Of a DNA stretch of 41,794 bases, positions 1,326 to 41,794 are shown one piece after another. Position numbers and translations under genes: made by a program. Under the pieces are notes generated by a model, which saw nothing but the letters and a program-made list of their open reading frames with translations, made no database searches and had not been told where the DNA came from. Within the stretch, counting starts at the first letter, position 1. The number at the start of each line of letters is the position of its first letter. The stretch lies in assembly GCA_003646305.1 (NCBI GenBank), contig QNFJ01000001.1:1-41794 (forward strand). Direction: 5' to 3'. Source of the DNA: Gammaproteobacteria bacterium (GTDB taxonomy: Bacteria; Pseudomonadota; Gammaproteobacteria; Methylococcales; UBA2780).

Positions 1326-1344
1326 AGCTTGTTTATCTTTTTAA

Positions 1345-1381
1345 AAATTTATTGTGAATTTGAAATTATCACAATAAATTT
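1345..1381. promoter_or_regulatory. Perfect 13-bp inverted repeat AAATTTATTGTGA-N11-TCACAATAAATTT in the divergent promoter region; candidate operator
   Basis: Read directly: 1345-1357 is the reverse complement of 1369-1381. It lies between the divergent PrpD-like gene (start 1325) and the ACAD operon (start 1486). Confidence 0.4.
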
Positions 1382-1389
1382 AAAATGTC

Positions 1390-1418
1390 TTGCCTAACCT
1401 AACAAATGTTAGTAATTT
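1390..1418 (+). promoter_or_regulatory. Candidate sigma70 promoter TTGCCT-N17-TAATTT with palindrome CTAACAaaTGTTAG (1399-1412) in the spacer
   Basis: The hexamers and the 17-nt spacing were read directly, about 70 nt upstream of the GTG at 1486. The 6+2+6 palindrome fills the spacer. The -10 match is weak. Confidence 0.3.
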
Positions 1419-1485
1419 ATATTCCATTACCTCTATTTGACCTTTGTTTAGAACGTTTTTGTGAATTTAAGTTAGGAGCACAGAT

Positions 1486-2640
1486 GTGGATTTTTCTTTA
1501 ACCGAAGAGCAGTTGGCCATTCAGGAAAGCGCCAGACGTTTTGCTGAAGACAAGTTACTTCCCGAGTATCAGAATAATGACAAGAAGCATTGTTTTGATA
1601 AGGTGATGCTGAAAGAGATGGGTGAGCTGGGCTTGATCGGCAGCGAGCTTTCGGAGCGGTATGGTGGTTTAGGTCTAGGTTATGTGACAGCGGGTTTGAT
1701 CACCGAAGAGATTGCCCGAGCCGACTTTAATGTGGCCTATGTGCAGATCCTCGCTGGCCTGAACGGGGGGATTATTGAAAAGTTTGCGGCGCCTCATTTA
1801 GCGGAGGAGTGGATTCCAAAAATCATTAGCGGTGAGGCGCTTGTTGCGATCGCTTTGACGGAACCGAGTGCGGGATCTGATGCGGGAAATCTAAAACTGA
1901 AAGCCAAAAGGAAGGGGGATGTGTTCGTTCTTGATGGTGAGAAAACCTCGATTTCAGCTGCTGCTCAAGCGGATGTGGCGGTTGTTTTTGCTCGAACGGG
2001 TACACAGGAAGAAAAAGCGAGAGGGGTGAGTGCCTTTCTGGTGCCTTTAGATCATCCCAACATTACGCGTACTCATTTTGATGACCTTGGTGAGTCGATT
2101 GTTGGGCGCGGCTCAATCTTTTTCGATGGTGTCGAAGTACCGGCCGAGAATATGCTTGGAGAAGAGGGACTCGGTTTTATTCAGGTGATGCAGGGTTTTG
2201 ATTATAGCCGTGCCTTAATTGGTATTGAGTGTTTGGCGGCAGCGAAGAAATCGGTTGAAGAGGCCTGGGAACAGATTCGCCAACGTGAAGCATTTGGTAA
2301 AAAGATCTCAAAGTTTGAAGGTGCTAGCTTTCCTTTGGCCGAAGCGGAGACTTTTATCGAGGCGGCAAAACTGCTGTGTTACAAAACACTCTGGTTAAGA
2401 GATCAAGGTAAACCTCATACTGCCGAAGCGGCAATGTGCAAATGGTGGGCACCAAAAATTTCATTCGAGATTATTCATAATTGTTTGTTAGCGCATGGCC
2501 ACGGTGGCTACAGTAAAGAGTATCCGATCCAGCAGCGGCTACGTGATGTGCTTGGCTTGCAGATTGGTGATGGCACTTCACAAATCCAGAAGATTGTCAT
2601 TGCCAGAGAGAAAATTGGCCGTGATGGCGTTCCCTATTAA
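1486..2640 (+). CDS. acyl-CoA dehydrogenase family protein
   Basis: 384 aa with a GTG start downstream of TAGGAG. ACAD hallmarks are present (ALTEPSAGSDAG; C-terminal LGLQIGDGTSQIQKIVIAR). Asp sits where MCAD-type enzymes have the catalytic Glu (I-Y-E-G-T versus I-G-D-G-T). Confidence 0.9.
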   Translation: MDFSLTEEQLAIQESARRFAEDKLLPEYQNNDKKHCFDKVMLKEMGELGLIGSELSERYGGLGLGYVTAGLITEEIARADFNVAYVQILAGLNGGIIEKFAAPHLAEEWIPKIISGEALVAIALTEPSAGSDAGNLKLKAKRKGDVFVLDGEKTSISAAAQADVAVVFARTGTQEEKARGVSAFLVPLDHPNITRTHFDDLGESIVGRGSIFFDGVEVPAENMLGEEGLGFIQVMQGFDYSRALIGIECLAAAKKSVEEAWEQIRQREAFGKKISKFEGASFPLAEAETFIEAAKLLCYKTLWLRDQGKPHTAEAAMCKWWAPKISFEIIHNCLLAHGHGGYSKEYPIQQRLRDVLGLQIGDGTSQIQKIVIAREKIGRDGVPY

Positions 2641-2655
2641 AGAAGGTATCAGAGC

Positions 2656-3447
2656 ATGAGCGATAAAATTGTTATCTCATCGATAGAGGGAAATGTCGGT
2701 CTGATTATCATCAATCGAGCCGACAAATTTAATTGTCTTTCAATGGCCGTGCATCAGGCTTTGCAAGATGCACTACAGGCGCATGAAAGTAATTCGGAAG
2801 TGAGAGCGGTTTTACTTTGTTCGGAAGGTGATCACTTTTGTACCGGAGCAGATCTTGATGAGGTGCATGGCAAGATAGCGGCTAAAGACGATGCTGTGCT
2901 TAGAGAATTTATCGAACTGGGACATAAAACCTGTCGTGATTTTGAACAGACTAGTTTGCCAGTTGTTGGCGCTATTCAGGGGTTCTGTTTAGCGGGTGGG
3001 TTAGAGATATCACTCGGCTGTGATCTGTTGTTTGCTGCGGATGATGCGCTATTCGGTGATCAGCATGCCAACTATGGGTTGATACCTGGGTGGGGAGGAA
3101 GTCAAAGGCTTACTCGAATTATCGGTTTTCGTCGTGCGCTTGATCTGATGTTGTCAGGTCGCCGATTAAAAGCAAAAGAGGCTCAGGAATGGGGAATGGT
3201 TAATTATCTAGCACCTGCTGAATCGCTTAGGGAAGAGGCGCTTAAATATTGTCATCTGCTGGCATCAAAAAGTTCCGGCGGGCTTTCAATGATGAAAGCG
3301 CTCGCCTATCAAGGAAGTGATTTGAGCCTTGATGACGCTTTGCGACTGGAGGTCAACGAGGCGATTAAGGGGCTGCAAAGTGAAGATGTGGGAGAAGGGC
3401 TTGCTGCATTTGGAGAGCGCCGGGAACCTGTCTTCAGATCCCGATAA
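2656..3447 (+). CDS. crotonase-fold protein (enoyl-CoA hydratase/isomerase family) with atypical active site
   Basis: 263 aa. Crotonase motifs are present (FCTGADLDE, GFCLAGGLEISLGCD, GLIPGWGGSQRL). The first catalytic Glu is present (GGLEIS). The second aligns with His (FGDQHANYG versus FGQPEILLG of rat ECH). Confidence 0.85.
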   Translation: MSDKIVISSIEGNVGLIIINRADKFNCLSMAVHQALQDALQAHESNSEVRAVLLCSEGDHFCTGADLDEVHGKIAAKDDAVLREFIELGHKTCRDFEQTSLPVVGAIQGFCLAGGLEISLGCDLLFAADDALFGDQHANYGLIPGWGGSQRLTRIIGFRRALDLMLSGRRLKAKEAQEWGMVNYLAPAESLREEALKYCHLLASKSSGGLSMMKALAYQGSDLSLDDALRLEVNEAIKGLQSEDVGEGLAAFGERREPVFRSR

Positions 3448-3493
3448 ACAGATTTAAATAACGAATTAATATTTAGCCGAGAAGGGAAAAATA

Positions 3494-4276
3494 ATGAACT
3501 ACGAAGATATTACCTATGAAGTAAAAAATGGAGCAGCTTACGTCACCATTAACCGTCCAAAAGTATTTAATGCTTTTAGAGGGATTACCTGTGAAGAGCT
3601 AATTCATGCGCTGACTAAAGCCGCATGGGACAAAAGTGTTGGTGTGATTGTTCTGGCGGGAGCGGGTGATAAAGCATTCTGTACAGGTGGAGATCAAAGT
3701 GCACATGACGGTCAATATGACGGGCGAGGGATTGTTGGCCTGCCTGTTGAAGAGCTGCAAACAATTCTTCGTGATGCGCCTAAACCAGTTATTGCGATGG
3801 TACAAGGTTATGCCATTGGTGGGGGCAATGTGCTGGCGACGATCTGTGATATGACGATCGCCTCAGAAAGAGCCGTTTTTGGCCAGGTGGGCCCTAAAGT
3901 TGGCTCTGTTGATCCGGGTCATGGAACCGCTTATCTTGCCCGCGTGGTTGGGGAGAAAAAAGCACGTGAAATCTGGTACATGTGCCGTAAATATTCTGCA
4001 CAGGAAGCGCTTGAGATGGGGTTGGTTAACAAGGTTGTTCCACATGAAGAGCTTGCTGATGAAGTACAGAAGTGGTGTGATGAAATCATGGATAAAAGCC
4101 CAACAGCACTAGCGATTGCCAAGCGCTCTTTTAATGCCGATACAGAAAGTATCAGAGGAATTTCCGCGTTGGGTATGCAGACATTGCAGCTTTATTACAA
4201 TACAGAAGAGTCTCAGGAAGGGGTTAAGGCGTTTAATGAAAAGCGTAAACCTGATTTCCGCCAGCATGTTAAATAA
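3494..4276 (+). CDS. MenB/BadI-family crotonase, best read as a BadI-like 2-ketocyclohexanecarboxyl-CoA-type (beta-ketoacyl-CoA) hydrolase
   Basis: 260 aa. It carries FCTGGDQSAHDGQYDGRG (the short BadI-like version of the MenB GGDQ loop), GYAIGGGNVLATICD, GPKVGSVDPGHGTAYLARVVG and the C-terminal KAFNEKRKPDF. There are no menaquinone genes nearby, and it follows an ACAD and a crotonase. Confidence 0.72.
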   Translation: MNYEDITYEVKNGAAYVTINRPKVFNAFRGITCEELIHALTKAAWDKSVGVIVLAGAGDKAFCTGGDQSAHDGQYDGRGIVGLPVEELQTILRDAPKPVIAMVQGYAIGGGNVLATICDMTIASERAVFGQVGPKVGSVDPGHGTAYLARVVGEKKAREIWYMCRKYSAQEALEMGLVNKVVPHEELADEVQKWCDEIMDKSPTALAIAKRSFNADTESIRGISALGMQTLQLYYNTEESQEGVKAFNEKRKPDFRQHVK

Positions 4277-4296
4277 CGTTTAATCGAGATAAACCT

Positions 4297-4884
4297 ATGC
4301 CAGAATCAGGAATTTACGCCATCGATGGGGTTGTCCCAGTTATTCATCCGTCCGCCTTTGTTGACGAAAATGCCACGATTATTGGTGATGTCATTATCGG
4401 ACCAGACTGCTATATCGGTCCTAATGCTTGTCTGAGGGGTGATATGGCCACCATTGAAGTCGGAGCGGGTTCTAATATTCAGGATAACTGCACACTGCAT
4501 TGTATGCCCGGTTTGCCGACAATTATTGGAGAGTGGGGGCACCTTGGTCATGGTGCGGTGGTTCATAGTGCTCGGCTAGCAAAGAATGTCCTGGTTGGTA
4601 TGAATGCTGTTGTGATGGATCAGTCTTTTATCGGTGAGAATAGCGTTGTTGCTGCAATGGCGTTTGTAAAAGTCGGAATGCAAGTGCCAGAAAATACGCT
4701 GGTTGCAGGAACACCTGCACGTATCATTCGGCAGTTGACGGAACAGGAAATTGAAGGAAAACGAGACGGGACACGCTGTTATCACCAGTTAGTGAGCCGT
4801 TGTAAAGACTCTTTAAAGCGGGTCACGCCGCGGACTGAAAAAGAGGTGGGTCGCCCAGAGTTAAAAGTTAAACCGTTAGGATGA
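4297..4884 (+). CDS. gamma-carbonic-anhydrase-like hexapeptide-repeat protein (PaaY/CaiE/YrdA family)
   Basis: 195 aa. Left-handed beta-helix hexapeptide repeats are visible (IIGDVIIGPDCYIGPNACL...). The His triad spacing is retained (H68 in TLH, H85 and H90 in LGHGAVVH). Confidence 0.8.
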   Translation: MPESGIYAIDGVVPVIHPSAFVDENATIIGDVIIGPDCYIGPNACLRGDMATIEVGAGSNIQDNCTLHCMPGLPTIIGEWGHLGHGAVVHSARLAKNVLVGMNAVVMDQSFIGENSVVAAMAFVKVGMQVPENTLVAGTPARIIRQLTEQEIEGKRDGTRCYHQLVSRCKDSLKRVTPRTEKEVGRPELKVKPLG

Positions 4885-4942
4885 ATTTAAGTGAAGCGGT
4901 TGAAAGTATTGTTTTGTTTAAAATTTAGATTAAGAGGAAATC

Positions 4943-6139
4943 ATGGATTTAAATTACACTCCAGAAGAAAAAGCATTTCAATTAGAAGTGCGTAGCTTCT
5001 TAAAGGAAAGCTACCCGAAAGAGCTCCAGGATAAAGTTTCAAAAGGGATTGCGCTCAAAAAAGAGGATTATGTCCGTTGGCAGAAAATTCTTGCTAAGCA
5101 GGGTTGGGTTGCACCTGGCTGGCCGGAAAAATTTGGTGGCCCCGGCTGGAGTCCTGTTCAGAAATATATCTTTGATGAGGAGTGTGGTACTGCGAACTGC
5201 TTGAGGACGGTTGCTTTTGGTCTGGTGATGTTGGCGCCTGTCTTAATGGAATTTGGAACAGACGAGCAGCGTGAAAAGTATTTATCAGACATCTATAACA
5301 GTGATGTTTGGTGGTGCCAGGGTTATTCGGAACCCAACTCAGGTTCAGATTTGGCCTCTTTGCAGACGCGGGCAGAAAAGCAGGGTGACCACTATATCGT
5401 CAATGGCTCTAAAACATGGACAACCCATGGTCATTACGCCGATAAGATGTTTGCACTGGTTCGAACCAGCAAAGAAGATCGGAAACAAAAAGGGATCAGC
5501 TTCCTAATGCTCGATATGAAGGCGCCCGGTGTTACAGTCGACCCGATTATTACGGTTGACGGAATGCATGTGGTCAATCAGGTCTTTCTTGATAATGTAA
5601 AAGTACCGGTTGAAAACCTGGTCGGGGTAGAAGGGGAAGGCTGGACGATTGCAAAGTATTTGTTACAGCACGAACGAACTTATATTGCCCAGGTGCCACG
5701 TTCTAAAAAGCAGATTGAGCGCTTGAAGGTATTGGCAGGAAAAGAGCTGCACAATGGTAAATCGTTATTGGAAGATGATCGCTTTCGCGCAAAAATTGCT
5801 GAAATTGAGATTGAGTTATTGGCATTAGAAATGACCAGTTTGCGGATTCTATCCAAAATGTCAGCAGGGCAGCCTCCAGGGTCTGCCTCATCGCTACTTA
5901 AAGTCAAAGGAACAGAAGTACAGCAGGCGATTACGGCTCTACTAATGGAAGCGACAGGTTACTACGGTTTTCCTTACTTCAAAGAGGTCCTTAAAGAGGG
6001 CTGGAATGAAGAGGCAGTAGGGCCTGAAGAGGCAACCTTCCTCGCCCCACATTACTTCGACTGGCGTAAATCTTCTATTTACGGTGGCTCGAATGAAATT
6101 CAGAAAAATATTATGGCGAAAGCTGTATTGGGACTTTAA
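4943..6139 (+). CDS. acyl-CoA dehydrogenase family protein (putative catalytic subunit of a heteromeric pair)
   Basis: 398 aa with YSEPNSGSDLAS and the C-terminal SSIYGGSNEIQKNIMAKAVLGL. The MCAD-type Glu position is Gly, but an IVD/LCAD-type helix-G Glu is present (LLQHERT). Confidence 0.9.
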   Translation: MDLNYTPEEKAFQLEVRSFLKESYPKELQDKVSKGIALKKEDYVRWQKILAKQGWVAPGWPEKFGGPGWSPVQKYIFDEECGTANCLRTVAFGLVMLAPVLMEFGTDEQREKYLSDIYNSDVWWCQGYSEPNSGSDLASLQTRAEKQGDHYIVNGSKTWTTHGHYADKMFALVRTSKEDRKQKGISFLMLDMKAPGVTVDPIITVDGMHVVNQVFLDNVKVPVENLVGVEGEGWTIAKYLLQHERTYIAQVPRSKKQIERLKVLAGKELHNGKSLLEDDRFRAKIAEIEIELLALEMTSLRILSKMSAGQPPGSASSLLKVKGTEVQQAITALLMEATGYYGFPYFKEVLKEGWNEEAVGPEEATFLAPHYFDWRKSSIYGGSNEIQKNIMAKAVLGL

Positions 6140-28126: not shown

Positions 28127-29299
28127 TTATTTTTTTGTTTTGCCGATGGCACCGGCTGCTTCAAGGTTTTTAATTTTATTGTCTGAAAATCCCCAGTGTG
28201 AGAGCACCTGATAGGTGCTGTTTCCCGCCGCTTCAGGTGGTGTGGGTTGCGCGGTTTTAGTTCGACTAAACCGGGGGCTGGGGGCTGGTTGGGTAATACC
28301 GTCGACCGTTATAAATGTTCCGCGATGTTGGTTATGTGGATGATCGGCCGCTTCGGCCATATTTAGAACCGGCGCAAAGCAGGCATCCGTTCCTTCTAAA
28401 AGTGCGCACCACTCATCCGCTGTTTTCTCGACAAACCGGGTTGCGAATAGCTGTTTGGCATGTGGCCAGTTGTTGCGGTCGTCGAGGTCTGGAAAGGTTG
28501 CTGGATCAAAGCCGATACGGGTCAATAATTCTTTACAAAATTTGGCCTCTATCGGTGCAATGGTGATGACGCCCTGTTCAATTAAGTCGAGCATAGCATC
28601 GATGACAACGCCGGAATGAATGCCAATATCACAATGATTTTTAAGGTTGCCTAGTACCGCATGAGGAATGCCGCCAACACCAACTTGAATGGTCGAACGG
28701 TCGGGAATAAGTGTGCTGGCCAATTGGCCAATCTGCCATTCAACCGCGCTTAGTTGAGGGGTAGATAATTCGACGGGCGGATGGCGAGCCTCAACAAAGA
28801 GGTCGATATTAATATCAGCAGGTAGATCGGCTCCATAACTATAAGGCACATCGGTATTAATTTCGGCAATCACGACCCGTGCCCGGCGAGCGGCTAATGC
28901 GGTGTAATCGTTACATAAGCCGAGATTTAGTTGGCCGCTTTCAGGGTGCTGGGAAAGTTGTAGTAAAACGCAATCTGCTCGAAGGGAACCATCATAAAAA
29001 GCTTGAGAAAAGGCGCTGTATTGCTGTGGAAGTTGGTCAAGAACACCAGCCTTTGCCAGAGCAGCTGCCTGACCGATGCCCCCGTAGGAATAAAAAGAGA
29101 GGTGGTCGCTCTGTTCAGCTTTAAAGGTGTCTGAATAGAGCGCCCCAAGAAAGAGGGTGCAGCCACTAATCTCCTCTCTTTCAGCGACCAGTTTTTGGGT
29201 GAGGGTGAGCGGTTCGGCCGTGCATTGCCCACAAATAATATGATCGCCCGCGCGAAGATAATCTTTAAAATGAAAACTATCTGCCGAGACGATCTTCAT
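28127..29299 (-). CDS. In-frame chimera: N-terminal domain of an acetyl-CoA hydrolase/transferase-family protein fused to the C-terminal half of an alpha-methylacyl-CoA racemase (family III CoA-transferase fold); possibly a deletion-generated pseudogene
   Basis: 390 aa. Residues 1-246 follow the acetyl-CoA hydrolase/transferase pattern (VVIAEINTDVPYSYG, TIQVGVGGIPHAVLGNL, DIGIHSGVVIDAMLDLIEQGVIT). Residues 247-390 match the AMACR/MCR C-terminal half (IAPIEAKFCKELLTRIGF, WPHAKQLFATRFVEKTADEWCALLEGTDACFAPVLNMAEAADHPHNQHRGTFITVDGITQPAPSPRFS). The junction is near nt 28556-28566. Confidence 0.6.
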   Translation of the reverse strand: MKIVSADSFHFKDYLRAGDHIICGQCTAEPLTLTQKLVAEREEISGCTLFLGALYSDTFKAEQSDHLSFYSYGGIGQAAALAKAGVLDQLPQQYSAFSQAFYDGSLRADCVLLQLSQHPESGQLNLGLCNDYTALAARRARVVIAEINTDVPYSYGADLPADINIDLFVEARHPPVELSTPQLSAVEWQIGQLASTLIPDRSTIQVGVGGIPHAVLGNLKNHCDIGIHSGVVIDAMLDLIEQGVITIAPIEAKFCKELLTRIGFDPATFPDLDDRNNWPHAKQLFATRFVEKTADEWCALLEGTDACFAPVLNMAEAADHPHNQHRGTFITVDGITQPAPSPRFSRTKTAQPTPPEAAGNSTYQVLSHWGFSDNKIKNLEAAGAIGKTKK

Positions 29300-30485: not shown

Positions 30486-31739
30486 TTAATTCTCTACTTT
30501 GTATTGTCTGGTGATGTCCTCCGGGGACTGAATAACCTTTTGTTTAAGCATCTCGTCGATCTGCTGCTTTGTATAACCGGCCTCTTGCAGTAACTCGATG
30601 CTGTGCTCACCTTGCCGAGGTGCTGGTCGGATTGGCTCTGCGGAGCTATCAGACCAGGTGGCCGGAACAGCCATAGAGAGGATATCGCCTTCTGTTGGAT
30701 GGTTTTGATGACGGAAGAAGTTGGTCGCAATGAGGTGGGGGTCTGACTGGATACTGTTTAAATCATGCATCGGCATCACCGGAATATCAGCTTTGTTGAG
30801 AATCTCAAGCCACTCTGCGGTGCTTCTGGTTTCCATCATGCCGGAGAACCACTTATAAACCGCATCAAAATCTTTAGCGCGGGAAGAAAAGTCTTTGAAA
30901 AGTGGATCGGTTTCTGGAATATCTTCGCGTCCAATGGCTTTAAAGAAGTGATTCCAATGTTTATCGGTATAGACCAGTGCACAGACATAGCCATCTTTGG
31001 TTTTATAAGGGCGACGGTATTTCGATAGTTGACGCGGATAGCCGCCATTATCAAGTGGGGGTTCGTAAGTGAGGCCGCCCATATGATCGCCGAGAGTGAA
31101 GCTGGTCATGGTTTCGAACATGGGAATATCGACACGTTGCCCTTTTCCGGTTCGATCTCGGTGAACCAGTGTTGCCAAAATCGCTCCCACAGCGGCCAGC
31201 CCGACAACACGGTCTGCGATGGCCGAAGGAACATAGCGGGGCTCTCCGCCGTCAACGCGTGTAAAAAGATGGGGCAGGGTTGATGCGCCCTGGATCAGGT
31301 CATCATAGGCCGGTTTTGCGGCATAAGGCCCCTCTTGCCCGTAACCAAACATCCCCGCGTAAATAATACGAGGGTTAACGGCTGAAACCACCTCATAACT
31401 GAGGCCAAGACGTTTCATTGCATTGGCACGGATGTTATAGACAAGGATATCGGCATTGGCACACAGCTTTAACAGCGCTTCGCGCCCCTCATCCTGTTTT
31501 AAGTCGAGGGTAATGGAGCGTTTACTGCGGTTTGCATTTAGAAAGATAGGGCCCATTCCAGGATTGCGGAGCGGGCCGATTGTGCGGACAAGATCTCCTT
31601 CTGGAGATTCGACCTTAATGACATCAGCCCCATAATCGCCGAGGGTCTGCGTTGCGTAAGGGCCCATTAATACGGTTGTCATATCAATAATGCGGACGCC
31701 CTCTAAAGGCCCTTTGTTGGTGGGCTCAGATTGGTTCAT
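30486..31739 (-). CDS. family III CoA-transferase (CaiB/BaiF family)
   Basis: 417 aa. The N-terminus has GVRIIDMTTVLMGPYATQTLGDYGADVIKVE. The conserved Asp region is SAIADRVVG. Confidence 0.9.
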   Translation of the reverse strand: MNQSEPTNKGPLEGVRIIDMTTVLMGPYATQTLGDYGADVIKVESPEGDLVRTIGPLRNPGMGPIFLNANRSKRSITLDLKQDEGREALLKLCANADILVYNIRANAMKRLGLSYEVVSAVNPRIIYAGMFGYGQEGPYAAKPAYDDLIQGASTLPHLFTRVDGGEPRYVPSAIADRVVGLAAVGAILATLVHRDRTGKGQRVDIPMFETMTSFTLGDHMGGLTYEPPLDNGGYPRQLSKYRRPYKTKDGYVCALVYTDKHWNHFFKAIGREDIPETDPLFKDFSSRAKDFDAVYKWFSGMMETRSTAEWLEILNKADIPVMPMHDLNSIQSDPHLIATNFFRHQNHPTEGDILSMAVPATWSDSSAEPIRPAPRQGEHSIELLQEAGYTKQQIDEMLKQKVIQSPEDITRQYKVEN

Positions 31740-32086
31740 TTAGAAACTCCGTGTGAATTGAGAGCGCAACTAAAGGCCTGGTTAGCCCAGTCGATTAATT
31801 CACTGTCATTTTCCAGCAGTTCATCAGGAGACTGGAAGTAGTTAAGGCAGATGGTTTTCCCTTTTTTTGAGTAAGAAAAAGGAGGGAGGTTATTTGCCTG
31901 AAAAACTGCAGCGCTCTTTTTGTCTGCTTTCAGGTAAAGAACGTCATCGGCAACCAGTGCAAACATCAACCCTTCAATAAAAAGCCCATAACAGCCGAAC
32001 ATTTTTTTTGCGATCACAGGCCCCATGGGTTGTAGCCGGTCAATGAGATAGCGGGTGAACTCATCAGTTTGATGGGTCTTGACCAT
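31736..32086 (-). CDS. TfoX N-terminal-domain protein (stand-alone)
   Basis: 116 aa with KKMFGCYGLFIEGLMFALVADDVLYLKAD, which matches my recollection of the TfoX_N pattern. Its stop overlaps the CoA-transferase start (ATGA type, 4 nt). Confidence 0.65.
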   Translation of the reverse strand: MVKTHQTDEFTRYLIDRLQPMGPVIAKKMFGCYGLFIEGLMFALVADDVLYLKADKKSAAVFQANNLPPFSYSKKGKTICLNYFQSPDELLENDSELIDWANQAFSCALNSHGVSK

Positions 32087-35470: not shown

Positions 35471-36613
35471 GTGCAAATAAGCAAACCACTACTTTTCTCT
35501 TCATGGGAGATCGCTAAATTAAAGCTATCCAATCGGATCATGATTTCGCCAATGTGTATTTATCAGGCGGAAGCGGATGGGCTAGTATCGGATAAGCATC
35601 TGGTTCACTATGGGCAATACGCTTTGGGAGGCGCAGGACTAATCATAACGGAGGCAATTGCTGTAGAAGAAAGAGGAAGGATTAGTGGCTGGGATCTTGG
35701 GTTATGGGCTGATGAGCAAATCAAACCGCTCCGCAAGATAGTCACTTTCGCGCAGGAACAGGGTTCTAAAATTGGTATACAACTTGGCCATTCCGGGCTT
35801 AAAGGCTCGACGAGGCCGCCCTGGGAAGGGAATGGTTTTCTTGATGAAAGCGATGCGGAAAGAAATGCCAAACCATGGAAAACCGTAGGGCCGTGCGAAA
35901 ATTTATTGCCCCCAGATTGGCCTGCACCTAAAGTATTAACGACTCAGGAAATTGCAGAAGTGGTCGATGCGTGGGGTGATGCGGCGGCGCGAGCTGATGC
36001 TGCCGGATTCGACGTGCTGGAAATACATGGTGCGCACGGATATTTGATAAGCGAGTTTTTATCACCGCTGAGTAACACGCGTAAAGATGGCTATGGAGGC
36101 GAAGAGGGAAGAACACGATTGGCATGTGAAGTGGTTGAGTCGGTTCGGGCGAACTGGCCTGATGATAAACCGCTATTTTTCCGAATATCAGTGATTGATG
36201 GTGTTGATGTAGGTTGGTCGATTGATGATTCCATCAGCTTTTCAAAACAGCTTAAAAGAATGGGAGTTGATTTGATTGATTGCTCCAGCGGTGGCTTTAA
36301 AGTTGAGCGAGACAGAGCTATACCAAGGAAATTAGGCTTTCAAGTCTATCTGTCTGAAGCTGTTAAAGCTGGTGCAAATATCCCCACAGCGTCAGTTGGG
36401 TTGATCACTGAGCCTGACCAGGCGGAGACTATTTTGCAGAGTGGGCAGGCCGACTTGATTGCGATCGGCAGAACCGCGTTGAATAATCCTTACTGGCCAC
36501 GGCATGCGGCTCAGTATTTTAGTGTTGATGATAAGTTTGAGAATTGGCCGACTCAATATGGCTGGTGGCTTGAGCGCTGGGCCAAGACGTTGAATCGATG
36601 TGAAGACAGGTGA
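35471..36613 (+). CDS. NADH:flavin oxidoreductase, Old Yellow Enzyme family (YqjM/NamA-like)
   Basis: 380 aa with a GTG start. It has ISPMCIYQA, IGIQLGHSG, FDVLEIHGAHGYLISEFLSPLSNTRKDGYGG and DLIAIGRTALNNPYWP. Confidence 0.9.
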   Translation: MQISKPLLFSSWEIAKLKLSNRIMISPMCIYQAEADGLVSDKHLVHYGQYALGGAGLIITEAIAVEERGRISGWDLGLWADEQIKPLRKIVTFAQEQGSKIGIQLGHSGLKGSTRPPWEGNGFLDESDAERNAKPWKTVGPCENLLPPDWPAPKVLTTQEIAEVVDAWGDAAARADAAGFDVLEIHGAHGYLISEFLSPLSNTRKDGYGGEEGRTRLACEVVESVRANWPDDKPLFFRISVIDGVDVGWSIDDSISFSKQLKRMGVDLIDCSSGGFKVERDRAIPRKLGFQVYLSEAVKAGANIPTASVGLITEPDQAETILQSGQADLIAIGRTALNNPYWPRHAAQYFSVDDKFENWPTQYGWWLERWAKTLNRCEDR

Positions 36614-36650: not shown

Positions 36651-37112
36651 ATGGAGCAAGAATGTATTCAGGAAAAAATGCGACCAAACTGTTGTTTTGG
36701 GTGTGGACTCGATAATCCCCATGGGTTGCAAATTAATAGCTACTGGAACGGTGATGAGGTTGTTTGTATCTGGAGTCCTAAGGATTACATGACAGGTCCC
36801 CCTGATTATCTATATGGTGGCACCTCTGCTAGTTTAATCGATTGCCATTCCGTCAATGCCGCGATTGCTTATGCTAATAGAATGGAGGGGAATGAGGATA
36901 AATACGATCAAAATATCCGCATGGTCACGGGGACAATGACCGTAAAATATTTAAAACCGGTTCCCATGAAGCCAGTCAAATTAACAGCAACGATTGAAAA
37001 AGTGGAAGGCCGAAAATATACCGTTAAAAGCACACTGCAAAGCGACAATGTGGTTTGTGTAGAGGGTAAGGTGGTTGCTATTCTTTTGAAGGTTGAAAAA
37101 GGTGAGTTGTAA
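36651..37112 (+). CDS. PaaI/4HBT-type hotdog-fold thioesterase
   Basis: 153 aa. The N-terminal CFGCGLDNPHGLQI is typical of this thioesterase group, and the size fits a hotdog fold. Confidence 0.72.
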   Translation: MEQECIQEKMRPNCCFGCGLDNPHGLQINSYWNGDEVVCIWSPKDYMTGPPDYLYGGTSASLIDCHSVNAAIAYANRMEGNEDKYDQNIRMVTGTMTVKYLKPVPMKPVKLTATIEKVEGRKYTVKSTLQSDNVVCVEGKVVAILLKVEKGEL

Positions 37113-37204
37113 TCCAGTAGCTTGGCCTTGAATGGTAATATTGGTATCTCAGTATAAATATAAAAAGCCATAATTAAGGCTAAAACGGGCAGTGGAGGTA
37201 TTGT

Positions 37205-39130
37205 ATGTTGGGGACTGTTTATCGGAATAAAGATTATCAGGGCCGGATTGAGAGAGCCCGAGAGCAATTTCATTGTGGTTTTGAAGTAAACGAAGAAATG
37301 CTTTCCCCGCTTGTGCTCGAGTCATGGCAGCGATCCAGGCAATTTAACGTCAGTAGTAATTTGAGTCGAGCTCCCGAAATTGAGGGAAATGGCTTGACTA
37401 ATACGGAACAGGATTCGTACTTGGCGCTACGAAAAGCCGCACTACCCGTTATCAAGGATGCACGAAGGATTCTTGATGATAATCAGCTGCTTATGCTGCT
37501 AACTTCTGCTGAGGGGAAGATTATTGAGCGTGAGGGGAATCTGCGGTCGTTAAAAATAGCTGATTCACAGCAACTCATTATCGGTAGCAGCTGGACGGAA
37601 AGCAGTTGTGGTACAAATGCAGTGGGAATGGCTATTTCCCTGCAGCAGCCAGCACAGATTGTTGCCCATGAGCATTATTGTGAAATGGTGAAAGTCTGGG
37701 GTTGTGCGGCTGTACCGATCAAAGACTTGAGAGATGGACGTATGCTGGGCGTACTGGATACGACCGGTCCTGCGCATTCATTCGGCTCGATGAACCTTGG
37801 CTGGGTCAACTCAATGGCCTCATGCATTGCATTTCGATTGAATGAAGAGCGCAATTTATCAAAATATCGCTTGCTTGAGCACTGTATGGGGCAAGCTCGC
37901 AGGCTCTCCCAAGCTAACGTACAACTTTTTGATGAAGACGGTTTCCTGGTCTGGATGAGTGATTGGTTATTAACTAAGCAGTGTGACGTGACTCTTCTAG
38001 GGCATAATCAGATTGGCATGAGGTGGGATGAGATGGCTGTGAGTAGGCAACCACTAAAGAATCCCCCGCGAGATATTCAGGCAGATTGCTTGGAGCCCGT
38101 GGTCATTGGAGGCAGAATAGCTGGCCATTTGTTATTTATTCCGGTAAAAGTTGAAAAAAAAGTTACGAAAATAGCTGTAATAGAGGCTAGACAAAGCAGC
38201 TTGATTATTGGGGAAAGCGCTGTAACGGAGGGATTAAAAAATCTTGCGAAACGCTTTGCCTGTGTAGATGCGATTTGCACGCTTACCGGTGAAACAGGTA
38301 CGGGCAAAGAGGTTATGGCCAGAGAAATGCACGCTCTGGGAAATAGAGAGGGTGCATTTATTGCGGTGAACTGTGGCGCGATGCAAAAAGAGCTGCTTGC
38401 GAGTGAGTTGTTTGGTTATGCGGAAGGTAGTTTTACCGGTGCCAAGCGAGGTGGAATGATTGGGAAGTTTGAGGCGGCTAACGGGGGGACTCTGCTGCTT
38501 GATGAGTTTTGCGAACTCCCTCTTGAATTACAGGTTTATCTGCTTAGAGTTCTTGAAGAGCATGAAGTCGTTCGGATTGGGGAATCAAAGCCTCGTAAGA
38601 TTAATGTACGAATTATCGTCGCAACCAATAAAAACCTTGAAGAAGAGGTTGAAGCTAAGCGCCTGAGGGAAGATTTGTACTACAGAATCAATGCAAATAT
38701 GATTGAGCTGCCCCCGTTACGGGAGCACAAAGAAGATATTATGGTTTTGTTCGATCATTTCCTAGGTCGAGTTTCAAGTGAGAGTTGTGGGATAGCACCT
38801 CAATTAACCCCCTCTTTTATAAAAGCGTTGAAAGCGCACAGTTGGCCGGGCAACATAAGAGAACTCCGCAATTTTGCCGAAAATTGTTTTCTGATGAATC
38901 CAGGTGAGACGTTAACGGTAGAGCATCTTCCCAATAGAATGCTGGCATCCGTTTCTCGTAGCTCCGGTCAAGAGGAAAGTGCGTGTGGTTGTACGCTTAA
39001 AGAAGTTGAGCGGCAGGCGCTTGTGGAAGCATTGAGTCTTTTTGATGGGAATATTTCGAAGGCTGCACGGCACCTTGGTATTGCGAGAAGTACGTTCTAT
39101 AAGAAAATGGATGCATTAGAAAAGGATTGA
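37205..39130 (+). CDS. sigma54-dependent transcriptional activator, AcoR/AcxR-like
   Basis: 641 aa. The N-terminal sensory region has the AcoR-type LESWQRSRQF motif. The AAA+ domain has Walker A GETGTGKE, GSFTGA (GAFTGA motif) and LLLDEF. The C-terminal Fis-type HTH is NISKAARHLGIARSTFYKKM. Confidence 0.92.
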   Translation: MLGTVYRNKDYQGRIERAREQFHCGFEVNEEMLSPLVLESWQRSRQFNVSSNLSRAPEIEGNGLTNTEQDSYLALRKAALPVIKDARRILDDNQLLMLLTSAEGKIIEREGNLRSLKIADSQQLIIGSSWTESSCGTNAVGMAISLQQPAQIVAHEHYCEMVKVWGCAAVPIKDLRDGRMLGVLDTTGPAHSFGSMNLGWVNSMASCIAFRLNEERNLSKYRLLEHCMGQARRLSQANVQLFDEDGFLVWMSDWLLTKQCDVTLLGHNQIGMRWDEMAVSRQPLKNPPRDIQADCLEPVVIGGRIAGHLLFIPVKVEKKVTKIAVIEARQSSLIIGESAVTEGLKNLAKRFACVDAICTLTGETGTGKEVMAREMHALGNREGAFIAVNCGAMQKELLASELFGYAEGSFTGAKRGGMIGKFEAANGGTLLLDEFCELPLELQVYLLRVLEEHEVVRIGESKPRKINVRIIVATNKNLEEEVEAKRLREDLYYRINANMIELPPLREHKEDIMVLFDHFLGRVSSESCGIAPQLTPSFIKALKAHSWPGNIRELRNFAENCFLMNPGETLTVEHLPNRMLASVSRSSGQEESACGCTLKEVERQALVEALSLFDGNISKAARHLGIARSTFYKKMDALEKD

Positions 39131-39234
39131 TTTCTTTATTCTTCTCATTGCTATTTGTGTTTGCACTTGAATACCATCGAGCACTTTTTCATCATTTCAT
39201 TCTTCCTAATTTCAATTAAGCTGTTGGTGCTTAA

Positions 39235-39260
39235 CCGAGATACTTAAATCTTTATCTCGG
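39235..39260 (+). terminator. Weak hairpin CCGAGATA-N10-TATCTCGG downstream of the regulator gene
   Basis: It has an 8-bp stem and a 10-nt loop, followed by CTGTCTCATTTT. It is AT-rich and the T-tract is poor. Confidence 0.3.
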
Positions 39261-39273
39261 CTGTCTCATTTTC

Positions 39274-39324
39274 GGACATTTTGTGATGTGATTATCCAAT
39301 ATCAGGACATTATGAGGTGATGTG
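39274..39324 (+). promoter_or_regulatory. Two direct repeats GGACATT(T/A)TG..GTGATGTG; candidate enhancer (UAS) for the sigma54 activator
   Basis: GGACATTTTGTGATGTG (39274-39290) and GGACATTATGAGGTGATGTG (39305-39324) lie about 60-110 bp upstream of the -24/-12 element. Confidence 0.35.
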
Positions 39325-39383
39325 GGTAAAGTTATTTTCTAAATGACCACTGATAAATAAGCGCTCTTCCTGCAACTGTGTTC

Positions 39384-39399
39384 TGGCATAAAGAATGCA
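39384..39399 (+). promoter_or_regulatory. sigma54 (-24/-12) promoter TGGCATaaagaaTGCA
   Basis: The GG and GC dinucleotides have canonical 12-nt register against TGGCACG-N4-TTGCW. It is about 60 nt upstream of the ATG at 39460 and immediately downstream of a sigma54 activator gene. Confidence 0.6.
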
Positions 39400-39459
39400 A
39401 TCGGTTACTTAGGTGCATACCTGTTTGTACCAAACATAAACCTGTAGGAGGGCGATCAA

Positions 39460-39730
39460 ATGGTAGCAGCAACAAAAGAGGTGCAGGGAAATAAGCCTGT
39501 TGAGGTTGAAAAAACGGTAGCCTATAAAATCAGTCAGCGAGATGAGTTAACCGAAAAAACGGGACACTACTGGGGAATTAAAGAATTCACGCTTAAAGAC
39601 AGTATCTGACCCAGTGAAGTTTGAGCGTTTTTATTCACGCCTGCAATCAGCCTGTATGGCGGCCAGAGAGATTTCTCGATTTGTTGCAGCTAGTCTGGGT
39701 GGTCGAGAAATGGGTGAGGCTGTGTGGGGG
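39460..39730 (+). pseudogene. 5' remnant of a second hydantoinase-B/acetone-carboxylase-alpha-like gene (frameshifted, then truncated)
   Basis: A good RBS (GGAGGG) precedes the ATG at 39460. MVAATKEVQGNKPVEVEKTVAYKISQRDELTEKTGHYWGIKEFTLKDSI ends in a stop at 39607-39609. The +1 frame continues DPVKFERFYSRLQSACMAAREISRFVAASLGGREMGEAVWG. Both parts parallel residues of the intact gene at 40653 (LEYKLQQRDELYKKTGHYWGVKELKLKEQDPIKYERFFSRIQSAVFAAREKARFVAASPGGREMGESLW). Homology stops at about 39730. Confidence 0.7.
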
Positions 39731-39732
39731 TT

Positions 39733-40579
39733 GGCAAGAAAGTACATGAAGCTGGGGGGAAGATTGCACCTCAGATCTGGCATACAGGGATGATGAGAGA
39801 GAAAGGAATGGAGCCTGATCCAGAAGAGATTGCTGTTGGGCCAAGCGATATATATAAGGATGTAGAGCTGGTGGCGCGTGGTCTTGGCCTGGATGAAATT
39901 GCAGAGATCGTGCTTGCTTATGCGCAAGCAGCGAAAGATGCAAAATCACTCGGTTTTGATGCGGTAGAAATCCACGGTGCACATCAATATTTAATCGATC
40001 AGTTTTTCTGGGAAGAAACCAATAAACGAACAGATGAATATGGGGGGGTAATAGAAAACCGTATTCGCTTTGGGAAAGAGGTTGTTGCTGCAGTACGGGC
40101 GGTAGTTGGCCCAGAATTTCCTGTTATTTTTCGTTTTTCGCAATGGAAACTACTGGATTACACAGCAAAAATTGCCAACTCTCCTGAGGAGTTAGGGAAA
40201 ATCCTTATTCCTTTGAGTGAAGCAAGGTGTGGACATTTTTCACGCCAGTACAAGGCGTTTTTGGGAGCCAGAATTTGAAGGATCTGATTTAAATTTGGCT
40301 GGTTGGGCGAAAAAACTGACCGGTAAACCTTCCATTACGCTAGGAAGCGTTGGGCTGGATAAGGAATTTAAGCTTGACCACTTTATAGGGACAGAAAATC
40401 CTGATGCAGGCACGACTGATATCAATGAACTGTGTAGCCGATTAAACAAAGGTGAATTTGATTTGGTGGCGCTTGGCCGGGCGATAATGGGCGATCACCA
40501 GTGGGTTAACAAAGTTAAGGCAGGCGATTTTGCGAGCATCAAACCCTTTGATAAGCACGCAATGGATACCCTCACTTGA
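39733..40579 (+). pseudogene. Old Yellow Enzyme-family flavin oxidoreductase remnant: roughly 80 N-terminal codons missing (estimated against the intact OYE at 35471) and one frameshift (about nt 40225)
   Basis: Track ORFs 39724..40278 and 40217..40579 together read KKVHEAGGKIAPQIWHTG...FDAVEIHGAHQYLIDQFFWEETNKRTDEYGG...LSEA/GVDIFHASTRRFWEPEF...DLVALGRAIMGDHQWVNK. There is no N-terminal FMN-binding segment. Removing the single extra A in GCAAGG restores the frame. Confidence 0.75.
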
Positions 40580-40652
40580 TGCCCTTTTTGTTAAAGAAAT
40601 GGTAAAACGGTAAGATCGAGAGAAAGTAATACTGACTTCCTGAGGAGGAAAA

Positions 40653-41794
40653 ATGACATCTGTAATGAAAGAAGGGCTGGGACTTCCAGTTGAAAAGACG
40701 TTGGAATACAAGCTGCAGCAACGTGACGAGTTGTATAAAAAAACAGGGCACTACTGGGGAGTAAAAGAGCTTAAGTTAAAAGAGCAGGATCCAATTAAAT
40801 ATGAACGCTTTTTTTCACGAATTCAGTCCGCCGTTTTTGCTGCGCGTGAAAAAGCTCGGTTTGTTGCGGCAAGTCCGGGTGGACGAGAAATGGGTGAATC
40901 ACTCTGGGCACTAACAACTGCTGAAGGGGACACGATCGCCATGTCGTTGGGCTTTATTTCTCATTGTGCCTCTTTTCCTGTCTCGATCAAACACATGATT
41001 GATAACCAGTTTGAAACTAATCCGGGCATTAACGACGGTGATGTATTTAGTGCTGATGATCCGCTGACATCCGGTGCGCCACATCCGGGAGATACATACA
41101 CGCTGGTTCCTATTTCTGTGGGTGGAGAAGTTATTGCGTGGTCATGTTCGGTTAATCATATCATGGACGCAGGCGCCCCTCAGGCGGGCAGCTGGCCAGT
41201 TTTTACGGTTGATACATTTATGGATGGGTTTGTCTTTCCGCCAATGAAAACAGGCGAAAACTTACGGGCGGCAAAATGGTGGGACAACCTGTGGATGAGG
41301 CGTACCCGTGCGGGAGCGATGAATGTTCTAGATGACAGAATGAGGCTTGCGGGCTGTTCAATGATTCATGGTTCTATACATGAAATTATTGAGGAATTCG
41401 GGGTCGAATACTACCAACAGGCATGCAAGGAGATTATTGAAGAGAGTCGACGGATGATCCTAAATAACATGCGTTCTACGTTGGTCCCTGGGCGATATGA
41501 TGGAAGCTGTTTCAGAATCTCCATGCTAAAAGGGCAGCAAAAAATTTGGGAGCATGCGGATAAAAATGAGCTGATTCACGTGCGTGGTGTATTCAGTGTT
41601 GATGAAGAGGGCCGAGTTGTATGGGATACAGAAGGCTCTTCACGGTGGGGCTATCATGGTTTTAATGGTTACCCTGGTGGTTCTGATGTGGCACTGTATC
41701 TTTGTATGACCACGACATTCGCCCATAGCTGTAAAGCTAGTGCTGGCGTCAATATGAACGTTGAGAGCATCTACCATGAAGGGAGCATTTATAA
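40653..41794 (+). CDS. hydantoinase B/oxoprolinase family protein, acetone/acetophenone-carboxylase alpha-subunit-like (5' part; continues past window end)
   Basis: Absent from the ORF track because no stop lies in the window. GAGGAGG is 5 nt upstream of the ATG at 40653. It reads MTSVMKEGLGLPVEKTLEYKLQQRDELYKKTGHYWGVKELKLKEQDPIKYERFFSRIQ...NPGINDGDVFSADDPLTSGAPHPGDTYTLVPI...HIMDAGAPQAGSWP... and stays open to 41794. Confidence 0.88.
   Translation, partial: MTSVMKEGLGLPVEKTLEYKLQQRDELYKKTGHYWGVKELKLKEQDPIKYERFFSRIQSAVFAAREKARFVAASPGGREMGESLWALTTAEGDTIAMSLGFISHCASFPVSIKHMIDNQFETNPGINDGDVFSADDPLTSGAPHPGDTYTLVPISVGGEVIAWSCSVNHIMDAGAPQAGSWPVFTVDTFMDGFVFPPMKTGENLRAAKWWDNLWMRRTRAGAMNVLDDRMRLAGCSMIHGSIHEIIEEFGVEYYQQACKEIIEESRRMILNNMRSTLVPGRYDGSCFRISMLKGQQKIWEHADKNELIHVRGVFSVDEEGRVVWDTEGSSRWGYHGFNGYPGGSDVALYLCMTTTFAHSCKASAGVNMNVESIYHEGSIY

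Follow-up and report, generated by a model that had tools for sequence, protein, structure and literature searches.

The closest described system to the locus analysed here is AcxABC/AcxR of Xanthobacter autotrophicus Py2 and Rhodobacter capsulatus (5svb and 5m45), with which it shares hydantoinase-B (alpha), hydantoinase-A (beta) and Acetone_carb_G (gamma) subunits. In Xanthobacter, acxABC is under sigma-54 and AcxR control (PMC2244623), and a sigma-54 promoter motif and an adjacent sigma-54 activator are likewise found here. We refer to the whole analysed stretch of 41,794 nucleotides as the window; its hydantoinase-B-like protein (HydB) aligns with acetone carboxylase alpha (5svb) over ~709 residues (E 1.6e-98), and the acetate/acetoacetate-CoA-ligase-like gene downstream fits a route from ketone through beta-ketoacid to CoA ester. 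The acx genes are ordered beta-alpha-gamma, whereas the order in the window is alpha-gamma-beta, and no NCBIfam equivalog cut-off is reached here. A further difference from AcxABC is that relatives of this locus carry two tandem paralogous carboxylase sets, 55-67% identical, with an Old Yellow Enzyme (OYE) gene between them, one set being represented in the window by a stub of 91 codons. A literature search found no paper mentioning both acetone carboxylase and Cycloclasticus.

Three further comparisons frame the locus. Members of the OYE family (PF00724; for example, morphinone reductase 2r14, NemA and OPR) are matched at the profile level by a remnant in the window, yet its first 92 residues are missing and its frame is broken, and from the known OYE fold it would be unable to form a complete barrel. 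Pseudogene fusions made by deletion in bacterial operons show the same combination of an out-of-frame join, later indels and an intact version in a relative; unlike the usual examples, the present one lies between a dedicated sigma-54 promoter and genes that are presumably still driven by it, with a leader of ~1.2 kb. Homology-facilitated illegitimate recombination is a documented mechanism (PMC3240628), and the likeness here, foreign-looking sequence on one side of the junction, is circumstantial.

Our main finding is that positions 39460-40652 very probably represent a deletion scar in a sigma-54-controlled, acetone-carboxylase-like operon, consisting of gene debris between the promoter and the surviving carboxylase set (Table 1). 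We compared the locus with a related MAG contig (GCA_053986525.1, hereafter L017), which holds an undeleted arrangement.

Table 1. Features of the window in and around the scar, with coordinates, strand and basis of assignment.
Feature	Position	Strand	Basis
Sigma-54-dependent activator (MimR_N/GAF sensor, AAA+ sigma-54 interaction domain, Fis-type HTH)	37205..39130	+	Pfam
Direct repeat GGACATTTTGTGATG / GGACATTATGAGGTG, 31 nt apart	39274..39319	+	65-110 nt upstream of sigma-54 motif
Sigma-54 promoter motif TGGCATAAAGAATGCA (-24 GG / -12 GC)	39384..39399	+	Consensus match
AGGAGG ribosome-binding site, inherited from HydB'	39446..39451	+	Direct reading; aligns with L017 HydB' leader
HydB' stub (hydantoinase-B/acetone-carboxylase-alpha paralogue)	39460..39738	+	Homology, alignments
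Junction between HydB' stub and OYE remnant	39738..39739	+	BLASTN and global alignments against L017
OYE-family (PF00724) remnant, codons 93-371 plus stop	39739..40579	+	Pfam profile, alignment with L017
OYE-HydB spacer	40580..40652	+	Alignment with L017; promoter scans
5' part of intact HydB, set 2	40653..41794	+	Pfam; 737 aa in full contig

The debris opens with the start of a second hydantoinase-B-like gene, HydB', of which the first 91 codons and 2 nt remain out of 741 codons in L017. Its ATG at 39460 begins a 49-codon open reading frame that stops at 39607-39609, and the frame is broken by a 4-nt insertion, CAGT, at ~39600-39603, which is missing from all six of the intact homologues compared. 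An earlier sequence-only reading had described a ribosome-binding site and 49 codons parallel to the N-terminus of HydB, followed by a +1 frameshift. The parallel is borne out by alignment, in which the stub joined to its frameshifted continuation shares 63% identity with the start of the intact HydB protein encoded from 40653 (E 4e-37); the net shift of +1 was also right, with the refinement that the actual event is the 4-nt insertion.

The stub belongs with HydB' and not with HydB: it is 84% identical in amino acids and 80% in nucleotides to the L017 HydB' N-terminus (E 1e-51) and 88% identical in amino acids to HydB' of a second relative (L025), with ranges of 84-88% against the HydB' clade and 58-68% against the HydB clade. 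Homology to the Hydantoinase_B/acetone carboxylase alpha-like family is clear, and what the stub lacks is the complete, uninterrupted HydB' coding sequence of ~737-741 codons. A Pfam search with the 89-aa stub gave no match because the domain begins only at about residue 46, and at the protein level the reconstructed stub retrieved only the 49-aa open reading frame itself in a search with a coarse word index. The HydB' and HydB N-termini of the window share only ~70% DNA identity and the two L017 proteins are 55% identical, which indicates that HydB' and HydB are old paralogues, as the sequence-only reading had proposed in preference to a recent duplication.

The second piece of debris matches PF00724 over profile positions 87-338 of 342 (E 1e-42; 147 bits against a gathering cut-off of 27) and is 96% identical in amino acids to codons 93-371 of the L017 OYE. 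Profile positions 1-86 are absent, so that a full-length barrel in one frame is not encoded: the first 92 codons, a quarter of the TIM-barrel profile, are gone, and an extra A at 40224/40225 (GAAGCAAGGTG versus GAAGC-AGGTG in the alignment with L017) breaks the frame at residue 254 of the parent protein. The N-terminal truncation had been recognised from the letters alone, with an estimate of ~80 missing codons that falls short of the true 92, and the 1-nt insertion had been placed correctly at ~40225. The nearest intact homologues of the remnant are all 371 aa long, and the one at 96% identity gives matches to OYEs of known structure at E ~1e-46. An intact OYE paralogue at 35471-36613 was considered as the source of the remnant and ruled out at only 31% identity.

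The two fragments meet out of frame with each other. Window positions 39436-39738 align with L017 4813-5110 and positions 39739-41794 with L017 10277-12323, so that in L017 terms nt 5110, the second base of HydB' codon 92, directly precedes nt 10277, with which OYE codon 93 begins. The switch into the OYE gene, previously put at ~39730, is thus real and falls exactly at 39738/39739. No microhomology beyond 1-3 nt is demonstrable at the junction in the alignment to L017, the true parent of the stub not being among the compared sequences. A HydB'-OYE fusion protein is ruled out by four stops between 39607 and 39738 in the frame of the ATG.

In L017 the gene order is sigma-54 activator, promoter motif, HydB' (741 aa), gamma' (185 aa), HydA' (719 aa), OYE (371 aa), HydB (737 aa), gamma, HydA and an ACS-like gene, and 5166 bp of this arrangement are absent from the window, comprising the greater part of a carboxylase set and the beginning of the OYE gene. 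This is the deletion that the sequence-only reading had postulated, and the ancestral arrangement it predicted for syntenic loci is the one found in L017. Another relative (L008) has the C-terminus of HydA', 95% identical to L017 HydA', followed by an intact OYE and then HydB, and therefore the same HydA'-OYE-HydB join as L017. Relatives thus show the undeleted state with intact genes and not the same truncated arrangement, which supports deletion. Across relatives more widely, the OYE gene stands before, between or after the carboxylase sets, and the sets occur in either order.

From these comparisons, the parental operon, as preserved in L017, had one sigma-54 promoter and two tandem paralogous carboxylase sets with an OYE flavin reductase gene between them. 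An illegitimate join of HydB' codon 92 to OYE codon 93 very probably took out ~5.2 kb, after which the 4-nt and 1-nt insertions were gained and the fragments appear to be drifting as pseudogenes. The remaining set 2 continues beyond the window with gamma (183 aa), HydA (722 aa) and the ACS-like ligase, and it still appears to be functional: HydB is 98.5% identical to its L017 counterpart in amino acids with an omega of 0.08, indicating purifying selection, and gamma and HydA are full-length and ~99% identical to those of L017.

L017 is best regarded as a model of the parental arrangement and not as the literal parent, because the stub and the regulator have diverged from it far more (dS about 1.2) than both flanks (~0.1). 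The activator is 63% identical in amino acids and 70% in nucleotides to the L017 counterpart at the same position, and the stub has a dS of 1.2. In contrast, the right flank (OYE and HydB) is 97% identical in nucleotides with a dS of about 0.1, and on the left OYE2 is 95% identical in amino acids (dS 0.13) and the thioesterase 89%. Nearly all of the stub divergence is synonymous (omega 0.06), so it arose in a functional gene and not after pseudogenisation. The block of regulator, promoter and stub thus stands much further from L017 than either flank does, and the locus reads as a recombinational mosaic in which this block has other ancestry than its surroundings, relative to L017. The scar itself may have arisen by simple deletion or else by homology-facilitated illegitimate recombination, as a one-ended replacement.

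The second of these options has a specific form, to which we give a tentative, minority place: in one step, a regulator, a promoter and the beginning of HydB', brought in on DNA from a diverged relative, would have displaced the native regulator together with set 1 and the start of the OYE gene. On the left the incoming DNA would have recombined homologously close to where the thioesterase gene ends (~37092), and on the right it would have been joined illegitimately to OYE codon 93. Set 2 would thereby have come under the control of another sigma-54 activator. In favour of this form, divergence from L017 changes abruptly just at the junction, OYE2 and the thioesterase further to the left are again close to L017, the largely synonymous stub divergence built up in a functional gene and the mechanism is the documented one cited above. 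The best non-self relative of the regulator (76% identical in amino acids) also lies in a different gene context, followed by porin, MMPL, DUF1302 and DUF1329 genes and no carboxylase; lacking a carboxylase downstream, it was rejected as a guide to the parental state. However, a recombination boundary anywhere inside the later-deleted 5.2 kb would look identical, L017 could instead be the recombinant lineage and clear microhomology is not visible at the junction. Nor did GTDB genomes and JGI metagenomes yield a donor allele for the stub above 88% amino acid or 81% nucleotide identity, and no third close lineage was found, the 90% clusters of OYE2, thioesterase and regulator holding the window and L017 lineages only. 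Somewhat less probable again is the adaptive version, in which the scar is not passive decay and would be a one-step regulatory rewiring that captured a foreign activator and promoter together with the first 275 nt of their own carboxylase gene. Under that version, and equally doubtful, the remaining carboxylase would come to be controlled by an activator whose sensor domain differs (63% identical).

In the window, debris separates set 2 from the sigma-54 promoter. The motif TGGCATAAAGAATGCA is the sole match to TGGCAY-N6-TGCW in the window, with 0.62 matches expected by chance, so the pattern alone is not significant. It fits 9 of the 11 consensus positions, with GG and GC 10 nt apart in the form TGGCAC-N5-TTGCW, and the activator gene ends 254 nt upstream. 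An equivalent motif of the type TGGCA(C/T)-N6-TGC (TGGCGC in L021) occurs in six other loci (L009, L012, L013, L017, L020 and L021), each time 45-64 nt ahead of the leading carboxylase gene; with the window included, this holds for seven of seven arrangements. The activator presumably regulates the promoter at 39384, and the direct repeat upstream of the motif may, speculatively, hold activator-binding sites.

In all seven arrangements a sigma-54 motif lies ahead of the leading carboxylase gene, and set 2 of the window, L017 and L008 has none in front of it, so the likeliest source of expression for the surviving set is read-through of the debris from the promoter at 39384. With the promoter and the HydB' start kept, activator-driven transcription should begin near 39410; the transcript would yield a 49-residue junk peptide, cross ~1.0 kb of debris that is not translated and continue into the intact HydB, gamma and HydA genes, which would rely on their own ribosome-binding site (GAGGAGG at 40642-40648, the strong site noted earlier from the letters) and have no promoter of their own. 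The event would have brought set 2, originally some 6.4 kb from the promoter, to within about 1.25 kb of it, at the cost of set 1 and the OYE enzyme. A simple scan of the + strand found no terminator in 39000-40800, and the debris is rich in G and poor in C (C/G 0.6), a composition that would be unfavourable for Rho loading.

It is fairly unlikely that HydB-gamma-HydA is instead driven by its own promoter within the OYE remnant or the spacer, which would make the debris irrelevant to expression. The promoter and terminator scans were simple consensus scans that can miss true promoters, so an internal promoter within the OYE remnant could escape them, and arrangements of the L013 type do have a sigma-54 promoter between OYE and HydB. 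On the other hand, no sigma-70-like site was found in 39000-40800 (2.7 expected in shuffles), and no sigma-54 motif stands before set 2 in the window, in L017 or in L008 (spacers of 65-134 bp in the latter two), in agreement with the earlier claim that HydB has no promoter of its own. A second GG-N10-GC site does occur at 39753 (TGGGGGGAAGATTGCA), but it falls within the codons for a conserved OYE motif, EAGGKIAP, and is not retained in L008, and no GG-N10-GC site downstream of it scores above 5 of 11. The spacer differs from that of L017 by an 8-nt insertion, and TGGTAAAACGGTAAG at 40600, which lies in this insertion, lacks the -12 GC, as had been stated.

A reading in which the fragments are still functional, whether the 49 codons as a leader peptide with a regulatory role or the OYE parts (open reading frames of 184 and 116/120 aa) as a split enzyme, is very improbable. 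The 49-codon frame does retain a strong ribosome-binding site, and gene callers predict the 49-, 184- and 116-aa open reading frames; against this, the OYE parts have lost 92 N-terminal residues and are broken a second time at residue 254, nothing similar is conserved outside a single population (>99.7% identical) and an Rfam search of 39000-40800 gave only a chance match (SOX2OT, 18.6 bits versus a gathering score of 70). Non-synonymous changes and SNPs also accumulate in the debris. The omega of the OYE remnant is 0.18, intact orthologues give 0.055 across the corresponding region, and on the window branch there are 8 non-synonymous and 7 synonymous changes in the remnant versus 6 and 23 in HydB (Fisher p = 0.04, with small counts of 15 and 29). 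L004 and the window differ by five SNPs, of which four lie in the debris, as do 6 of 18 SNPs overall, an enrichment on a small count. The direction is that expected of relaxed constraint, although the counts are small throughout.

The junction was recovered in four contigs, the additional A in four and the 4-nt insertion in six, from separate ENA, Logan and JGI samples; contigs overlapping the region show no indel differences from the window, and in alignments with relatives only the window lineage carries the two indels. While every contig is a short-read metagenome assembly, the recurrence of the same junction and both insertions in independent samples and through different pipelines, with neither indel in a long homopolymer, leaves next to no probability for an artefact and settles the concern raised earlier about errors at 39607 and 40225: sequencing or assembly error is excluded.

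The scar is therefore real, and it is an ordinary kind of feature that does not challenge current understanding. For annotation, the 49-, 184- and 116-aa open reading frames should be marked as pseudogene fragments and the carboxylase operon drawn with a 1.2-kb leader. For the biology of these bacteria, the locus would offer a clean, datable pruning of a catabolic operon with two paralogous ketone-carboxylase-like sets, the OYE remnant standing at a dS of ~0.1 from the undeleted relative, and it also exemplifies gene reshuffling among relatives. If the mosaic does reflect a regulator swap, it would show sigma-54 control modules moving between paralogous catabolic operons.

Upstream of the intact hydantoinase-B-like gene (HydB) lie the elements described by the sequence-only reading: a truncated paralogue (the HydB' stub) and an Old Yellow Enzyme (OYE) remnant, together the debris, followed by HydB itself. 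Homology in the stub is regained for 44 more codons once the frame is shifted after ~39600, and the reconstructed stub (89–91 residues) is 63% identical to the N-terminus of HydB (E 4e-37). The OYE remnant has a single frame break near 40225; the intact OYE paralogue at 35471–36613, at only 31% identity, was ruled out as its source.

Features of the region from the sigma-54 activator gene to HydB and their counterparts on contig L017
Feature	Position	Detail
Sigma-54 activator gene	37205–39130	Upstream of promoter, stub and OYE remnant
Direct repeat	39274–39288, 39305–39319	GGACATTTTGTGATG, GGACATTATGAGGTG; 31-nt spacing; 65–110 nt upstream of sigma-54 motif
Sigma-54 motif	39384	TGGCATAAAGAATGCA; before stub
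AGGAGG ribosome-binding site	39446	Before stub ATG
HydB' stub	39460–39738	
49-codon ORF	ATG 39460, stop 39607	5' part of stub
OYE remnant	39739–40579	Pfam PF00724, profile positions 87–338/342, E 1e-42
Sigma-54-like geometry	39753–39768	TGGGGGGAAGATTGCA; 15 nt right of junction, inside conserved OYE coding motif EAGGKIAP
Spacer	Between OYE remnant and HydB	73 nt, with GAGGAGG site
8-nt insertion versus L017	40601–40608	In spacer; gives GGTAA-AAC-GGTAA repeat
HydB	From 40653	Intact
Debris SNPs, L004	39571, 39614, 39696, 40235	
Debris SNPs, L003	39491, 40333	
Block aligned to L017 4813–5110	39436–39738	HydB' 5' end, 80% nt
Block aligned to L017 10277–12323	39739–41794	OYE codon 93 onward into HydB, 96.8% nt

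Intact 371-aa homologues of the reconstructed OYE remnant were found at 74–89% identity, and one protein of the nearest cluster lies on L017, an NCBI MAG contig (GCA_053986525.1). L017 and the window share their left flank: zf-ChsH2, OYE2 (an intact OYE paralogue), thioesterase and the sigma-54 activator. On L017 the activator is followed by HydB' (741 aa), gamma' (185 aa) and HydA' (719 aa), which form set 1, then OYE (371 aa), HydB (737 aa), gamma and HydA, the last three forming set 2, and finally an ACS-like ligase, a CoA-transferase and an acyl-CoA dehydrogenase. A second relative, L008, starts in the HydA' C-terminus (95% identity to that of L017) and continues into intact OYE and HydB. 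The aligned blocks place the junction at 39738|39739, with no microhomology beyond 1–3 nt demonstrable in the alignment. Relative to L017 the window is missing 5,166 bp: 650 HydB' codons, the entire gamma' and HydA' genes and 92 OYE codons. This intact arrangement supports the earlier proposal that most of one carboxylase set and the OYE 5' end were deleted, with small corrections (92 rather than ~80 OYE codons lost; switch at 39739 rather than ~39730), and the feature is a recent deletion (or replacement) scar.

The regulator protein is present on contigs assembled separately from ENA, Logan and JGI samples, which are 99.8–100% identical to the window and show no indel differences from it in the part of the region that each covers. 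Since the same junction (four contigs), additional A (four) and 4-nt insertion (six) recur on these independent assemblies, the scar and frameshifts are not an artefact. The first frameshift is net +1 as proposed, but the event is a 4-nt insertion, CAGT, at ~39600–39603 that is missing from all six intact HydB'/HydB genes compared; the second is one additional A at 40224/40225 in the alignment with L017.

The stub is what remains of an old paralogue, in agreement with the sequence-only reading, because it is closer to HydB'-clade proteins (73–88% identity; L017, L020–L027 and Cycloclasticus sp. 46_120_T64) than to the HydB clade (58–68%), and within L017 HydB' and HydB are only 55% identical (gamma subunits 60%, HydA subunits 67%). 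HydB shares homology with the alpha subunit of acetone carboxylase (5svb, E 1.6e-98); it reached no NCBIfam equivalog threshold, so the family match does not fix its substrate. On L028 (JGI Ga0105358_10006623, 1–6105) the order is reversed, HydB-gamma-HydA then HydB', which indicates that the two clades recur as tandem pairs in rearranged order.

When 37092–39738 is compared with L017, the regulator within it is 63% identical in amino acids (70% nt), though neighbouring genes reach 89–98.5%. To the left, OYE2 is 95% identical (dS 0.13) and the thioesterase 89%; to the right, the OYE remnant is 96% (dS 0.11) and HydB 98.5% identical (dS 0.09). The stub is 84% identical (80% nt), and its dS of 1.2 and omega of 0.06, against low dS in both flanks, mean that it diverged while still part of a working gene in another lineage, and not by decay. 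The locus is therefore a mosaic, which the window alone could not reveal. On its right side the foreign-looking block ends at the junction. The window regulator has its closest relative (76% aa) in L018/L019, where porin, MMPL, DUF1302 and DUF1329 genes come next and no carboxylase. A single homology-facilitated illegitimate recombination, a documented mechanism (PMC3240628), could have swapped the regulator module and made the scar in one event; an earlier allelic replacement with later deletion of its boundary also fits, as does L017 itself being the recombinant lineage. The clusters of OYE2, thioesterase and regulator contain no third close lineage to polarise window against L017, and GTDB genomes and JGI metagenomes yielded no stub donor allele above 88% aa.

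The loss behind the scar is recent, given an OYE dS of only 0.11 against L017. When L008 serves as outgroup, substitutions on the window branch number 7 synonymous and 8 non-synonymous in the OYE remnant versus 23 and 6 in HydB (Fisher p = 0.04; counts small), and omega is 0.18 for the remnant against L017 versus 0.055 for the intact L017–L008 pair in the corresponding codons. The debris accounts for ~10% of the length compared among window-type contigs and for 6 of their 18 SNPs; for L004, 4 of 5 differences over 9.2 kb lie there. These small counts lean the way that decay of the debris would predict.

Set 2 would be expressed by read-through from 39384 across the debris, which we infer to be the best explanation on several grounds. 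A motif of the form TGGCA(C/T)-N6-TGC (TGGCGC in L021) precedes the first carboxylase gene by 45–64 nt in seven arrangements, those of the window, L009, L012, L013, L017, L020 and L021. It is absent from the spacers that lead into set 2 on the window, L017 and L008, in keeping with the earlier view that HydB lacks its own promoter. The repeat made by the 8-nt spacer insertion is the sequence at ~40600 that the earlier reading weighed and rejected as a promoter. No sigma-70-like site or plus-strand terminator-like hairpin was found in 39000–40800, and the debris is poor in C (C/G 0.6), which is unfavourable for Rho loading. HydB remains under purifying selection (omega 0.08), and gamma and HydA are full-length with ~99% aa identity to L017. 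Acetone carboxylase in Xanthobacter is under established sigma-54/AcxR control (PMC2244623). The sole other GG-N10-GC site of any quality within 39131–40652, at 39753, is present in L017 and not in L008. The direct repeat at 39274–39319 may provide activator-binding sites.

As a whole, the window encodes a large catabolic cluster, with acyl-CoA dehydrogenases, enoyl-CoA hydratases, biotin carboxylase and carboxyltransferase, thiolase-like/ChsH2-like pairs, family III CoA-transferases and an RND pump. On the minus strand, 28127–29299, the other suspected chimera, is an intact ORF whose 390-aa product resembles family III CoA-transferases only in its C-terminal ~130 residues, with a weak AcetylCoA_hydro N-domain match in the N-terminal part; 31736–32086 (also minus strand) encodes a small TfoX_N-domain protein inside a CoA-transferase/acyl-CoA dehydrogenase operon. 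HydA and the ACS-like gene are separated by a second OYE fragment, the final 203 nt through the stop codon (L017 16272–16474; L001 18540–18742, downstream of the window). Identity to the OYE of L017 is 92% for the copy on L017 and 86% for the visibly decayed copy of the window lineage, which suggests insertion of set 2 into an L012-like HydB'-gamma'-HydA'-OYE-ACS locus, with the OYE 3' end duplicated. With P the sigma-54 motif, relatives show regulator-OYE-P-HydB (L013), P-HydB-gamma-HydA-OYE (L012, L016), transport genes-OYE-DUF1329-P-HydB (L009, Cycloclasticus) and set 2 then set 1 (L028). From these many permutations the region is evidently rearrangement-prone, in line with the earlier view of an island being remodelled, and the scar is an event of a common type, one that the data document well at this locus and that is of modest interest.
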